DNA of 64,000 bases from a virus (IMGVR_UViG_3300044712_000833:32001-96000), one strand, 5' to 3'; counted from the first letter of the stretch, positions 24,841 to 63,731 are shown. Numbers and translations: made by a program. Notes: a model not told the origin generated them from the letters alone.

Positions 24841-24865
24841 TTGACCTCTTTATAAAATTTGTATT

Positions 24866-25018
24866 TTATTTATTAATTCGACGATATTCAGCAAATACGG
24901 CTGATAGCCATCCCCAAGTGCTACCAATCCATCCGTCCTGACCAGTGTGTAGAACCATTACTAAGGATAGAATACAGAAAATAGCGAAAATGTAAATATA
25001 AAAAATTTTAAAATTCAT
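24866..25018 (-). CDS. Small membrane protein (not in ORF track)
   Basis: MNFKIFYIY...RRINK, 50 aa, bracketed by two ATAAAA-N6-TTTTAT sites. Confidence 0.5.
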   Translation of the reverse strand: MNFKIFYIYIFAIFCILSLVMVLHTGQDGWIGSTWGWLSAVFAEYRRINK

Positions 25019-25043
25019 AATAAAATTGACCTTTTATTCATCT

Positions 25044-25340
25044 TTACAAATCGGAATATGACTTAATGGCTTCGAACACCAACCTTATAGTATCATATTC
25101 TTCATCATTTATCATAGATGTTTTTTCTACTCTAAATCCACCACTTGAAATAAATGTTACTCTCTCATCCTTAAGAAAATCATCAACTAATCCAGAAACA
25201 AACTCTCTCAACTCTTCTGTAGATGGAACGTGATAGCCAGTGGGAAGTACAAGTTTCCAATCTAAAATCTCCATTATTTCTTTGGCTTTTTCGAATTTAA
25301 AACCGTCTAATAAATCTTTTTTAATTTTTTCTTTATCCAT
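25044..25340 (-). CDS. Hypothetical protein
   Basis: 98 aa, bracketed by repeat sites. Confidence 0.6.
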   Translation of the reverse strand: MDKEKIKKDLLDGFKFEKAKEIMEILDWKLVLPTGYHVPSTEELREFVSGLVDDFLKDERVTFISSGGFRVEKTSMINDEEYDTIRLVFEAIKSYSDL

Positions 25341-25355
25341 AAAACCTCTATTTTA

Positions 25356-25709
25356 TCAAAACCCAATTAAAGAAAACGCAGAAATCGGAAAGTTACATCC
25401 TTTTATATAGTGATATAACTGAATACTTACTTTTTTGCATTCTCCACAACGCCCTACACCATGAGCCAAACCCCATTCAAAACTACCAAATAAACCATCT
25501 AATTCTGATCCACATTTTGGGCATTTGTTGTCAATTATCCAAACTGCCTTATAATTTGAGAAATCTTCTATTGTAAGATTGCATTTATGTTCTTCATTGA
25601 ATAATTTAAGATTTTCTTCTGAAATCAAAATTCCATTAATTGAAAAATGTTCTTTTCCAAATTCATTACAAGCGACTTCATAAAAAGATTCTAACGTGTG
25701 TTCTGTCAC
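25356..25709 (-). CDS. Zinc-finger hypothetical protein
   Basis: CPKC...CGEC. Confidence 0.55.
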   Translation of the reverse strand: MTEHTLESFYEVACNEFGKEHFSINGILISEENLKLFNEEHKCNLTIEDFSNYKAVWIIDNKCPKCGSELDGLFGSFEWGLAHGVGRCGECKKVSIQLYHYIKGCNFPISAFSLIGF

Positions 25710-59100: not shown

Positions 59101-59121
59101 TTTATCTCCTTATTTTTAATA

Positions 59122-59150
59122 AGTATATCATAAAACAAAAATCCTGTCAA
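59122..59150 (-). promoter_or_regulatory. Sigma70-type promoter overlapping a terminator-like hairpin
   Basis: TTGACA-17-TATACT; AAATCCTGTCAA/TTGACAGGATTT inverted repeat at 59139-59171. Confidence 0.7.
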
Positions 59151-59176
59151 GGTCTAATTTTGACAGGATTTAATAA

Positions 59177-62100
59177 CTACTTTTTAGATTTCTTAGAATT
59201 ACTCAATTCATCTAAAGTTACAAATTTTGGATTATTTTTAATTGTCCCCTTTGAAGTGACTGTAAGAATGAAAATTTTACAATCTGAAATATCTGTTTCA
59301 ACTTCATTGTAACTCATTAGTTCTTGAAGAGTTCTAAAATAAGAAACTCCTCCATCAATCATGAAATCAACCAAATCAATTTCTGAGAACTCCAATTCCT
59401 CTGAACTATCGATTACTGCATAAACTGTATTACTCATTTTTCGTCTCCTTTGTTTGTATTATTCTTTAAAAGAAATTCGATTAGCCAAATATAACTCTTG
59501 GAAAAAAGAAGCGATTATATGAGCGATAACTTGCGTTGATATTAGCTCCGCTTCCTCTCTACCGTCATTCAACATTTTCACCATAGAATTAGTATTTTTC
59601 AGAACAAGGACAAGTGAAGTTTTGTCATCTTCCGATATAATAACATCTAATTTTTCAATGGCTTTACTTACTACTTCTTCGTAATTTTGACTCATTATAC
59701 TCCTTTTAATAAAATTAGTCTTTTATCAATTCAATTTCTTGGATTAAATTTTCCAACTGGTCATAATTATACTTACCCCATATAAATTCCCATATTATAT
59801 ATACTCAACGGGTTCGTCAATCCAACTAATATTTCTTCCAATTAACTTAGCAATACTTCCTTTTGGTACAACTACATAATTACAATTCTTTTCCTCGATT
59901 TCCTTATCACTGTAGTTAGAATAATGCCAATAATTCCAATGACCACTGACATATTTTCCATCCATCATCCACCCGTCCCACCTAAAAGGTTTTTCTTGAA
60001 AGATTTCTTCAGTTCCGTCCTCTCCAACACAAAGCCAACTCATATTTTAATCCTTTATAAAATCACAATTTTATTCTTTAAATTTAGCATCACCAGATAA
60101 CGACAATTCCATTAGATACCAATTTATAATGTATGCAATGAGTTGAGTCGATACAAGCTCCGATCCTTCATCCCAGTTATTTAATACCTTGACTATCCGA
60201 TTTGTATTATTCAAAAATAAAACCATGTTTCTCTTTCCTTTTTCGGAAACATCTAGGTTCAAGTCATTGATTACTTTTTCTACCATTTCTTCGTAATTGG
60301 GTTTCATTTATTCTTATCTCCTACAAGTATGAACAAAAAGATTCCAATTGCTAAAAATATTGCGTCTATCCATAGCGCATTGTATCCCAAATGTGGACTC
60401 GTACTATTTCCAATTATGAAACCGTCTATAATCAGATATGACAAAGGACATCCGATAAATGGCAATCCTAAGACTATTCTAGGGTCAAAATGCATTGTCC
60501 GCTCCAATCCACGTTCACATTCTTAACGACAGCCACATAACAAGGCTCTTCGTTTGTAGAAAAAAGACAAACGGGAGTCCCATCGGGTTCAAACATTTTA
60601 ATAACGTCTCCATAAACCAACATCTTGGGGTGAATCTCCACCCAAATGCCAGATAGACTAAATCGAATGAATCTTGTCTCGGACTCTTTCATACTACATG
60701 ACTGATCCCATAACTTTCTTATTTTCATTCCATCTTGGTTTACAGCCCATATTTCAACCGAAGAATACTTTCTCTCTAAGGTTCTAATTCGGGGAATAAC
60801 CTCTCCATATAAAGACGCATTGCTAGGAAATGGAATTTGATATATTTCATTTCCGTTTTCAGTTTCAACCACTGGAACAATACTGATTGTATCTACTAAC
60901 ATTTTTCTCCTTCTAATAAAAGATAAATTTTATTTACTTTTTAAAACAAAAGTATCAGCGAAAAACCAAAAAGCAATTGACATAAATAACAAAGGAATTA
61001 CTGCAAAAATAATGAACCATCCATAAGAAGATATTTTTTCAACAGCAAGCCCAATTCCTCCAATTGATGCGAAAACCATAAGAACAGAAACGCTTTTATA
61101 TGTTAGAAATATAAGAATGTCAATTAATTTTTCTTTATTCATTTTATTTTTTCACTTTTTTCCATTCAAGAAAGTATTGATCTGAAACATAATCTCCAGA
61201 TTTGAATTGTCCAGTGGATAAAACTATTTGAAGAACAATTGCCATATCTTTATGCAACTTCCAACAATATTTCTCTTGTTGAGAAGTTAATCTCAATTCG
61301 CCGCCCTCAATTTCAACAAAGTCTAAATCTATCGCTTCAGCGATACTTCGGGGAATATCAGAGTCTCCATATGGTCTTTTAGAGTCTATATTGACTCTTT
61401 GAGTATCTTCGTTCCAATAAACTAAAATAGACTTTACTAGCTTAATATGATCCCTTGTTACTTCAAAATATTTTTTACTCACTTAGACTCCTCTTGATAA
61501 CAAATGGATGATCCACCAGCCACAGCCTGTAAAGCACAGGAAGTTGATTGACATCCTATAATAAAAACAGTTACGACTACAAGAATAATATATTTTAATC
61601 TTTTCATTCTAATTCTCTCAATCTATTAGATAGTTCGTATAGGTCAGATGTCATTTCTACCCTATATCCGTTTCTAAATATCATATAATTATTTATATCC
61701 CTCCCCCACATAAATGAACAACATTGTTCGACCTCAAATTTCCCATCAAAAATAAAAACCTCTCCTGCTGGTTTCACTTCGGACAATGTGGAGTTAGCTA
61801 TTTCAATATTTATACGATTTACTCTTACAATCTTAATCATAAAACTTTCCCTTTATTAATCTATGTTGAAAACATAACCGCAATTAGAGCAGAGGTTAAA
61901 ATACTCTTTTCTCATTGGAGATAATCGATTAAACCCATAAACTTTTTCATCAGTATATTTTTGATCTTCAAAAACTGTATCATAATCTGTTTCAATGTGA
62001 AGTTCTTCGATGCTTTTACAATTTGGACAAACTTGTTTCCAATATTCATGCCAAGTAGTTATTTGCCTCGGAATTAAAAATTTCTTTGTGTTCATAAAAT

Positions 62101-63731
62101 GTTCCTTTTATTTTCCATCTAGAACTGCGTTTGAAATCAGTTCTCTAATTTCTCCCCAAGGGACTCCGTTATAATTATCATCACCATGAGAAATCCAAGA
62201 ATCGACAAGTTCCATGTAATAAGGTAATCTTTCTTCTGGAGACATATCTTTCCAACAGTATTCACATAAGGGAAAACAGCCACTACCCATTCTGTAAGGT
62301 GTTGAATGGAAATTATCTATAACAAAAGAGATATGACATCTTCCACAAGAAGCGGTATCTGGAAACATTATTTCAGAAATCTTTCCAATCTTAGTTCTGC
62401 TTTGCAACATAAGTTTTTTGTTCATAAAATCTGCCTTTTATTTAGGTTCAAAATTTGGTTCTTCAGGAAGACTCGTCCAGCACTTAGGATCATATACAAC
62501 ATCGTATCCTCCTTGTTCATCTTGCCAACTTCCAATCCTGCACCATCTCCAACCAATGTACCCATTGGGATAGTTCACAGAGTCTTCGTTCCAAGAAACA
62601 TGAACCCACTCCCCTTTTCCATCTGCGCTAAGTTCTTCGCTCCATACAAGAATCGGAGTCCCATCTTTAGGGGCTATATCCATTGAGTTATATTTTGTCA
62701 TTATAAAATTTACCTCTTATTTACTCTTCATAATTTTATTTTGAAGTTCTAAAATTCTATCTTTAGATAAAGGAGGGGCATTGTCAATTTCAATTTCTGT
62801 TGCTACTCCATTGTGGTAAAAAACAACATCCCAATGAGTAATATTATATTTACGCCTTAATGTGTCTTGAATTTTTGAATATTCATTAACCAGAGAAATT
62901 ATTTCTTTCCACTCGGCTTTGTGGAATTCAAAAATATGATTTCTCAAAGGTTTTGCTGAAGCGTTATCGTGAAACCTTCCTAAGTCACTTCCGCATATCG
63001 GACATATTACATTTCTTTTTGTCATCGAATAAAATCCTTCTTTTATTCGTTTGGAATTAATTTAACCAAGACAGGAGCATATGCACTGTGGTTAGTATCG
63101 TAAAACCAGTCGCATGTCTTTTCTTCTGTAACATTAAATGTTTCAACAACTCTCCCTAATCTCCCGCCAATTTCCTTATTTACGATATTTTTAACCTGAT
63201 AAACTTCAGGATAAGTATCTTCCATAAAGAAATCACCAATAGATAAATCGTAAAGATCAACGTACCCAGTTTGACCTACGAACAAGGCAGTAAAATTTTT
63301 CCAGTTCTTTCCCATATTTTACTCTTTTCCTATAATGTAATAAGAATCTAAATTAATTTCAGTTGATATTTTAGATAAAACAAAAACATCAGTTAGTCCG
63401 AAAGTCTCTTCTGATCCAACAATAGAGAACAGACCATCACTATCATATCTACCTACGGTAACGTACTTTGAATCATTTATGCTAACCCAATAAAAACAAT
63501 TTTTTTCTAAGTATTTAATGTTCATACTTAATTCCTTTCATTTGTAATCATATCCTCAATCATCCAATAAGTAGACCAATTACAGGGAACTTTCTCTAAT
63601 AGAATATTATTAAACCTAATCTCATAATTTCTTCGATTATCAACCATTCTAATATCAAAACCATTATAAATAAATGGTTCGCCGCTCAAAAGGATTTCGT
63701 TCATGTCGTCAATACTATTTTGTCCACACAT
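59177..63731 (-). other. Array of about 16 small hypothetical ORFs punctuated by palindromic junction sites
   Basis: Includes paralogs 59459-59695 and 60071-60307, a DUF551-like ORF 62438-62701 (APKDGT...WTSLPEEP) and small membrane proteins. Confidence 0.6.

Follow-up and report, generated by a model that had tools for sequence, protein, structure and literature searches.

The mosaic genomes of phages are usually attributed to rare illegitimate or loosely homologous recombination and subsequent selection. The literature describes plasmid dif modules, the elements called PeSLs in T4-type phages, phage attC sites and unexplained phage palindromes. Here, we analysed a 64,000-nucleotide stretch of viral DNA (the window), which comprises bases 32001-96000 of the 129,715-bp record IMGVR_UViG_3300044712_000833 (G000, below G0). 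In this stretch an 18-bp dyad, ATAAAA-N6-TTTTAT, recurs at gene junctions. Judging from comparison with related genomes, these sites are probably crossover points for cassette exchange, and the 6-bp core (the spacer between the two arms) probably acts as the address of a slot. The mosaic boundaries of the whole early region fall on this one class of 18-bp dyad, and the cores outlast both of their neighbours.

Xer sites consist of inverted arms around a central region of 6-8 bp, and the arm of difH ends in ATGAAAA (relevant part of PMC5357621). For the dif modules of Acinetobacter plasmids, the relevant sections of PMC13141974 report recombination only between identical or near-identical 6-bp spacers. 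The sites described here resemble these pdif (XerC-XerD) modules, which are bounded by sites with differing 6-bp spacers and are replaced between matched spacers (same sections of PMC13141974). In contrast, the pdif arms are 11 bp long and of two kinds (XerC and XerD), which gives modules of alternating orientation, whereas the arms here are 6-7 bp long, palindromic and in one orientation. Host enzymes act on plasmids in that system; here, a phage with some 50 or more sites encodes its own candidate Xer-like recombinases. The T4-type PeSLs are likewise short repeats between small genes of hyperplastic regions, and they form the boundaries of indels and replacements (PMC2839356 and PMC4122927, in the parts concerned with these elements). 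A PeSL consists of a sigma-70-like promoter and a terminator stem-loop and recombines as a generic repeat, whereas our sites have neither feature and carry a slot-specific core. The invariant 17-bp inverted repeat TGTTCGG-N3-CCGAACA of Cluster O mycobacteriophages is also similar, with more than 30 copies, a variable centre, many positions between open reading frames (ORFs) and a function given as unknown (relevant part of PMC4351075). Unlike the core here, its centre has 3 bp, is mostly TTT/AAA and cannot carry an address, and the passages of PMC4351075 on this repeat do not describe cargo exchange between conserved centres.

The sites further resemble heterospecific lox/FRT sites in that the arms are identical and the spacers differ. 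Heterospecific lox/FRT sites recombine like with like only and allow a cassette to be swapped between two pairs of matching sites without deletion, and they are an engineering device. Among the literature matches listed, all of which concern engineering, we found no natural phage counterpart of this cassette exchange. Two other systems share part of the arrangement. Stoperators are asymmetric, are bound by a monomeric repressor, have no variable core and are not described as exchange junctions. Integron attC sites are much longer; they are recognised in the form of folded single strands, and each moves along with its cassette. The likeness to the stoperators of Cluster A mycobacteriophages lies in tens of protein-binding sites in short intergenic regions of operons (relevant part of PMC9283540). 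The likeness to integron attC sites, including those of phages, lies in promoterless cassette arrays of one orientation, imperfect palindromes and a tyrosine recombinase (relevant part of PMC9892861). A keyword search of open-access papers returned no phage whose dyad junctions carry slot-specific cores, although such a search does not prove their absence.

The window contains 29 perfect copies of the dyad, whereas 0.17 are expected from 100 dinucleotide shuffles, the largest of which gave 2. The whole record holds 56, and the reversed control pattern 0. The spacing is strict over the whole record, where N6 gives 56 sites and any other spacing from N0 to N14 gives two at most. Sites with one arm mismatch are also in excess (22 vs 3.6 expected). 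The sites are real and highly non-random, and their 6-N6-6 architecture agrees with the Xer/dif rule of inverted arms around a 6-8 bp central region. The genome is that of a large siphovirus. Its plus-strand block carries the structural genes (tape measure, Dit and tail proteins), and its minus-strand block, from window position 20873 onward, carries replication genes and many small ORFs. This minus-strand block contains 52 of the 56 perfect sites.

The initial annotation had listed 26 spacers, all different and of constant length, and suggested that unique spacers block self-deletion yet allow slot-specific exchange between co-infecting genomes. Its 26 entries are correct. The list is incomplete, as it holds 26 of 29 and lacks TGCTTC at 28737, TCCCAG at 51430 and TCCGTC at 54810; two of its spacers, TCAACA at 4115 and GATGTA at 20859, lie outside the range of 24852-63046 assigned to them. 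All spacers differ and measure exactly 6 bp in the window (29/29) and in the genome (56/56), with strict N6. Such uniqueness is at chance level, as the same annotation had cautioned for unconstrained spacers: with 26 sites, the probability that all differ is 0.73-0.86; it is 0.68-0.83 with 29 and 0.23-0.48 with 56. We counted 0 identical spacer pairs where 1.3 are expected (P = 0.25), and 12 pairs at most one base apart where 19.6 are expected (P = 0.037), which is a weak signal. Uniqueness within the genome is no evidence for the address idea. Meanwhile, near-identical spacers are not genomic neighbours. No other locus is enriched in spacer matches, which leaves no sign of a guide array, and no spacer is the reverse complement of another within the genome, which leaves no kissing-loop pairs.

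For comparison, relatives were obtained by a polymerase-based scan. G001 is a 43.6-kb contig whose polymerase is 95% identical in amino acids and whose DNA is 65-86% identical where alignable. L041 covers 22.3 kb of a 128-kb metagenome contig (polymerase 95% identical), and G002 is a distant relative (polymerase 47%). We notice that G0, G001 and L041 are mutual mosaics. Perfect-site spacers are shared by G0 and G001 in 8 cases (null mean 0.6), by G0 and L041 in 7 (0.95), and by G001 and L041 in 9 (0.29). Counts this high never arose in 5000 shuffles, and the shared spacers are all collinear in each pair.

Read on the plus strand, the recurrent order of cores begins with GATGTA (20859..20876), which lies between the convergent ends of the plus and minus blocks and is the same in G001, with homologous flanks. 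It continues with TTGACC (25020..25037), TAACCC (25904..25921), TGCGCC (27708..27725), GTAATA (30817..30834), TCGGAA (31300..31317) and TAAGCG (33506..33523). Then follow TGTGTC (33739..33756), TTATGT (38046..38063), TCTTCA (38266..38283), TGCCTA (39280..39297), TGTAYG (39765..39782), TATCKC (40005..40022) and TTTCTA (43219..43236). From TTGACC on, these sites lie on the minus strand, as do all other sites of the window from 24852 onward. The cores GTAATA, TCGGAA, TGTGTC, TTATGT and TGCCTA are the same in G001 and L041, TTGACC is the same in G001, and TGCGCC is common to L041. Both flanks are unrelated in G001 at TTGACC, TGCCTA and GTAATA, and one flank of GTAATA is borderline (0.63) in L041.

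Some addresses stand between degenerate arms. The window sites of TAAGCG, TAACCC and TTTCTA each have one arm mismatch, and that of TCTTCA has two. TAAGCG and TCTTCA are common to the three genomes, the TAAGCG site being perfect in both relatives and flanked by unrelated sequence; TAACCC and TTTCTA are common to the window and L041, where both sites are perfect. Three slots of the window differ slightly from the relatives, two of them by one base. TGTATG, at a site with one arm mismatch, is TGTACG in G001 and L041, and TATCGC, a perfect site with a DnaB-like helicase gene upstream and a 70-aa gene downstream, is TATCTC in both. The third core, CCTCTA (25339..25356), is two bases off its counterpart CACCTA in L041 (4/6).

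In 31 shared-core comparisons, both 60-nt flanks were random in 12, one was random in 14 and neither in 5, where random means an identity of 0.62 or less (random mean 0.54, 95th percentile 0.62). The identical run past the 18-mer is at most 6 nt in 53 of the 62 flanks, and homology is lost at the edges of the site. Unconstrained spacers, shared by chance or through overall sequence identity, would account for the chance-level uniqueness within the genome. However, they do not account for 7-9 shared spacers where 0.3-1.0 are expected, all of them collinear, or for spacers that are identical where the flanks are at random identity. We consider this explanation extremely improbable.

The cargo between conserved cores differs from genome to genome. 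The slot between TAAGCG and TGTGTC is filled by a 67-aa gene in the window, by an unrelated one of 68 aa in G001 and by a Dam methylase of 279 aa in L041. A contig from an independent sequencing run (X3) joins ATAAAA-TAAGCG to Dam, and the other end of Dam to a TGTGTC site. The interval from TTATGT to TGCCTA contains different gene sets in G0, G001 and L041. In the window, TTATGT lies upstream of a Mom-like gene and TCTTCA downstream of a Dam methylase, and in L041 the two sites are 2 nt apart, which is an empty slot. Boundaries of indels and replacements between the relatives coincide with sites. The initial annotation had named as its test whether the core is kept at orthologous junctions while the cargo changes, and the comparison with G001 and L041 gives this outcome; spacers drifting freely between close relatives, which it had set against the idea, are not what we observe. 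We also find the same cargo beside different cores, and different cargos beside the same core. Identity with integron attC sites was considered and rejected, because the core stays with the slot and not with the cargo, and because the recombinases of the phage score far below the integron-integrase cut-offs (20-39 bits vs cut-offs of 265-435).

Much of the exchangeable cargo serves to modify DNA, namely N6_N4 methylases, a methylase of the Dam type and a Mom-like protein, and HNH endonucleases also occur. In the window, modification cargo lies at 34399-35100, 37454-38047 and 38280-39128, and it is also present in slots of G001 and L041. The same slots hold different methylases in different genomes, as expected for anti-restriction cargo. 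In L041, two sites 1.5 kb apart (13240 and 14760, reverse-complement coordinates) have the cores TACCTA and TGCCTA, which differ by one base, and the window lacks the cargo between them. Such a pattern would result if a circular cassette had integrated at one site.

On the coding strand, the consensus of 52 sites is A-T-R-A | ATAAAA | K-N-N-N-N-A | TTTTAT | n-A-A-g-a-a. The stop codon of the upstream gene is the T-R-A just 5' of the left arm, or a TAA within the left arm. A Shine-Dalgarno (SD) sequence follows a few bases 3' of the right arm, so that most sites stand between a stop codon and the next SD. At several sites the core itself is the SD, with an ATG that overlaps the right arm. The SD-like readings GGAACA, GAAGGA and TAGAGG of the initial annotation are present on the coding strand, with an ATG overlapping or just after the right arm. 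They belong to TGTTCC (62094..62111, ATG overlapping), TCCTTC (63029..63046) and the above-mentioned CCTCTA (TAGAGG as SD, ATG overlapping); TCTGCC (62424..62441) reads GGCAGA and also has an ATG overlapping its right arm. Whichever strand is read, position 7 follows a rule of 'not A' (A in 1 of 52) and position 12 of 'not T' (T in 2 of 52). In the half-site, ATAAAA is succeeded by a base other than A, and the leading T of the spacers belongs to this half-site. This T, which had been noticed in 20 of 26 spacers, is found in exactly that number; it leads 23 of the 29 window spacers and 40 of the 56 in the genome.

Gene junctions are of two kinds, those that overlap or nearly abut and have no site, and those with gaps of about 12-50 nt and one site. 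Since only the latter hold a site, the sites delimit modules of one to several genes. All sites have the same orientation relative to the genes, the modules are unidirectional and both arms are alike. By crude gene calls, 48 of 56 sites are placed at junctions; these calls scored 62424 as intragenic through a spurious plus-strand ORF, and it is a junction. The truly intra-ORF perfect matches in the window are TGCTTC (28737..28754), TCCCAG (51430..51447, inside ORF 51260-51820) and TCCGTC (54810..54827, inside ORF 54669-55586), where 0.17 matches are expected for the whole window. TGCTTC lies inside a 154-aa ORF (28479-28943) and is conserved along with this gene in G001 and L041, so it is not a junction.

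Strong sigma-70-type promoters are located away from the sites; minus-strand examples are 37457, 54659, 49371 and 46119. As the strong promoters lie elsewhere, the sites stand inside operons and are not promoters. The site logo contains no -35 or -10 hexamers, and terminator scans picked up none of the sites, which lack the G+C-rich stem and T run of an intrinsic terminator. The strong promoters form a family, cccTTGACAAAA-N6-TTTTGTGGTAnAAT, with members at window 37429-37457, 49343-49371 and 16325, and the same family occurs in G001 at 4748, 11250, 15102 and 20370 (reverse-complement coordinates). Several of these promoters contain a perfect dyad, ACAAAA-N6-TTTTGT, within the spacer from -35 to -10, which resembles the junction site. 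This dyad is counted 5 times in G001 (4 in promoters) and once in G0. The likeness could be a coincidence or reflect a shared binding protein.

Two genes of the window encode candidate enzymes. The first, at 6398..7393 on the plus strand, encodes a Xer-like tyrosine recombinase of 331 aa in the tail module (Pfam Phage_integrase, 5.9e-20). Its NCBIfam XerA/C/D matches are below cut-off. The catalytic residues of such enzymes are R, K, H-x-x-R, H/W and Y, and R171, H279-x-x-R282 and Y314 are invariant in the alignment. The gene lies just upstream of the tape-measure gene, and its homologues have the same place in G001 and G002. Such a placement in the tail module is odd for a phage without an evident lysogeny module. 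The second, at 53742..54602 on the minus strand, lies between junction sites and encodes a Xer-like tyrosine recombinase of 286 aa with Pfam and NCBIfam matches. It aligns to the XerA structures 4a8e and 5hxy and remains below the NCBIfam Xer cut-offs.

Homologues of the tail-module recombinase, at 40-66% identity, occur in 18 viral-contig loci (L091-L108), many on contigs of 120-167 kb, which a scan with the alignment of this protein retrieved. In each of the whole records that we fetched, the sites have a symmetric arm particular to that record; the N6 spacing and the order of stop codon, site and SD are constant. G003 has 46 copies of ATGAAA/TTTCAT, extended to yCCCATGAAA-N6-TTTCATGGGr (arms of 9-10 bp), and G005 has 10 copies of ATAGAA/TTCTAT. 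TTAAAA/TTTTAA occurs 11 times in G006, AAGAAA/TTTCTT 6 times in G007, and ATAAAA/TTTTAT 9 times in G004. Cores are unique within every sister genome, and none beyond chance are shared by these lineages with that of the window. The 'not A / not T' rule at positions 7 and 12 recurs in G003 and hence holds in two lineages. Arm conservation extends over 6-7 bp in the window's lineage and 9-10 bp in G003 and G005. The slot comparison could not be replicated in other lineages: in G006 and G008 all 5 of 5 spacers are shared, the distances between sites are identical and the cargo is unchanged, and G011 and G012 are mostly 95-99% identical, so both pairs are uninformative.

Transcribed sites inside operons, away from strong promoters, would suit intercistronic RNA hairpins for processing, mRNA stability or translational coupling, with loops free to vary, and the extended arms of G003 do form fairly stable hairpins (mean -5.8 kcal/mol). 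However, the 6-bp helix with a 6-nt loop is not stable in the present genome, at about +0.25 kcal/mol for RNA and -0.6 for DNA, and across lineages stability ranges from nil to -6 kcal/mol. We found no compensated double changes at junctions within the genome. T7 and A12 co-occur in 15 cases where 19.3 are expected, so pairing of positions 7 and 12 is not selected. RNA loops would drift, yet these cores are conserved by slot, and the Rfam matches are tRNAs only. Hairpins are a very unlikely account of the sites. Because each genome has one arm, arms differ by lineage and hairpin stability varies, the comparison points to a sequence-specific protein that would bind DNA as two subunits, and not to recognition of a fold.

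This protein might be a phage regulator whose sites are spread across the early operons like stoperators, with no role in recombination and with cores shared by common descent. Such a regulator would fit the dyad symmetry, the constant spacing close to one helical turn, the presence of tens of copies beside stop codons in short intergenic regions and the arms that change in concert by lineage; stoperators and their repressors reportedly also change in concert by lineage. Some strong promoters hold the related dyad ACAAAA-N6-TTTTGT between -35 and -10, but this likeness may merely follow from TTGACAAAA and TTTTGTGG. A regulator leaves unexplained the identical 6-bp cores amid unrelated neighbours (12 of 31 comparisons), the end of homology exactly at the site edges, and the three unrelated cargos between the same two cores. 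We regard it as quite unlikely.

The explanation that we prefer is exchange at the sites themselves. In this proposal, the sites bound the gene modules of a hyperplastic early region, and related phages would exchange these modules during co-infection. A sequence-specific protein would sit on the inverted arms with two subunits, and the crossover would fall inside the site and require identity through the 6-bp core. The ordered slots would be retained while the cargo turns over because a site recombines productively only with the same slot elsewhere. A Xer-type tyrosine recombinase, either one of the two of the phage or the host Xer, may exchange the strands by the logic of the Acinetobacter dif modules; we put this attribution at a little under an even chance. 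A broader version, in which a family of 120-170 kb siphophages practises natural recombinase-mediated cassette exchange with about 50 heterospecific cores as ordered slots, appears rather doubtful to us. In such a family, the phage Xer-like recombinase would read the lineage-specific arms, relatives would swap anti-defence or accessory cassettes without scrambling, and changes of the arm would create separate groups of exchange compatibility. If the proposal of exchange is true, the genome has a built-in grammar for ordered gene exchange, and if a recombinase is responsible, the sites form a ready set of about 50 mutually orthogonal recombination sites. Intergenic phage palindromes listed as 'function unknown' can be probed in the same way, through positional conservation of their centres.

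Several observations weigh against this proposal, some against a strict address and others against the enzyme. G001 lacks the 168-bp cassette between 24852 and 25020, and the 181-aa gene is joined directly to TTGACC. Because the core of the upstream site is retained, this crossover took place within an arm and joined two sites whose cores differ. The neighbour of a 220-aa gene is TTGACC in G001 and TGCGCC in L041, and the slot of the Dam methylase differs between the window and L041. When orthology was defined by flanks only, 23 site pairs had cores identical at 6/6 positions in 12, 5/6 in 3 and 4/6 or fewer in 8. Given a flank identity of 0.83, pairs at 6/6 are only modestly in excess (P = 0.035), and the split is bimodal, the core being either kept or wholly different. 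The address idea of the initial annotation survives the comparison with relatives, whereas a full block of deletion and confinement of cargo are not borne out by the 168-bp cassette, the 220-aa gene and Dam. The TCAACA core at 4115 corresponds, apart from one change, to the reverse complement of its counterpart in G001. The sites resemble translational punctuation, which could be their primary role. The comparison covers three genomes of the ATAAAA lineage only, of which the two relatives, G001 and L041, resemble one another more closely than they do the window. As for the enzyme, the arms are conserved over 6-7 bp only, compared with about 11 bp in Xer arms, and nothing ties either candidate recombinase to the sites. 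The presence of the recombinase in the sister genomes reflects selection, because these genomes were found through it. G002 has a homologue and only 3 perfect sites, and recombinase identity does not track the arms (G001, 66%, same arm; G003, 60%, different; G004, 49%, same).

The same address logic could operate with no site-specific enzyme, through short-homology recombination or template switching within 18-25 bp of identity, by a Sak4-like protein and SSB. The dyads would then exist for another reason, such as regulator binding or intercistronic punctuation, and the apparent conservation of the cores would arise because crossing over is restricted to identical sites. An AAA_24 protein, a candidate annealing recombinase, is encoded at 44266..45210 on the minus strand (Pfam AAA_24, 8e-19), and AAA_24 presumably covers Sak4-type annealing proteins. 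The gene for SSB (43846..44250, minus strand; Pfam and NCBIfam SSB matches) lies side by side with it. Deletions and relocations between unlike addresses join in one arm, which fits microhomology, and the core at 4115, flipped relative to G001, is what template switching at a quasi-palindrome would give. The PeSLs offer a precedent, since their junction cassettes mediate indels and replacements by homologous recombination (relevant parts of PMC2839356 and PMC4122927). Against this route, the promoter hexamers and stable stem-loop that define PeSLs are absent here. Symmetric lineage-specific arms with strict N6 would demand a dedicated protein with another role, and no regulator was identified. 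For homologous exchange, 18 bp is a very small length; nevertheless, islands of exactly this size are preserved with unrelated cargo on either side. Short-homology exchange is possible, though on the unlikely side; both it and the Xer route predict the observed data.

The site at 4115..4132 (TCAACA) is located on the plus strand in the structural block, after the stop of the gene at 3630-4118. Its ortholog in G001 has the core TGCTGA; the upstream flank is homologous and the other flank is ambiguous. The difference amounts to a small inversion of the palindrome loop, and G002 has TGTTGA at a non-orthologous place. TTTGTA (24852..24869), at the junction of a 50-aa and a 181-aa gene, is absent from G001, and TCCATA (46991..47008) lies directly upstream of tRNA-Trp. 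Further perfect junction sites follow on the minus strand, with the cores TAATCA (52963..52980), GAACAA (53205..53222), TATACC (53432..53449), TGATTG (55597..55614) and TCGTCG (56479..56496). TTGCTA (57541..57558), CTGTGC (58338..58355), TTAGTC (59709..59726), TCACAA (60057..60074) and GATAAA (60916..60933) complete the series up to the SD-like cores described above. The scan of viral_contigs gave no relatives of the early-region recombinase, of a 637-aa protein or of a 243-aa exonuclease, so that window 47-64 kb is without a covering relative.

No close isolated phage was found, as a Megablast comparison of 16 kb with isolated phages produced no matches and tblastn with the polymerase gave a best identity of 32%, with nothing nearer. 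An exact scan with the TGTGTC 18-mer returned 15 loci, of which G001 alone is a relative and the other 14 are single chance matches. The sequencing runs X1-X3 are represented by contigs only, without read-level joints; in X1 and X2 we notice odd low-depth joints, which are located away from the sites.

Besides the DnaB-like helicase, the minus-strand block encodes a primase-polymerase, a DNA polymerase, ThyX, a ribonucleotide reductase and several DNA methylases. The phage has 4-5 tRNA genes. The fifth, at window 49156-49268 on the minus strand (113 nt; Rfam, 58 bits), was not reported by ARAGORN, and its excess length suggests an insertion or an intron in the tRNA gene. In G001, the tape-measure and ribonucleotide reductase genes (9946-15098 and 24605-27166, reverse-complement coordinates) are each interrupted by an inserted ORF. 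These two ORFs, of 321 aa and 240 aa, have no counterpart in the window and are possibly mobile introns, inteins or homing-endonuclease insertions.

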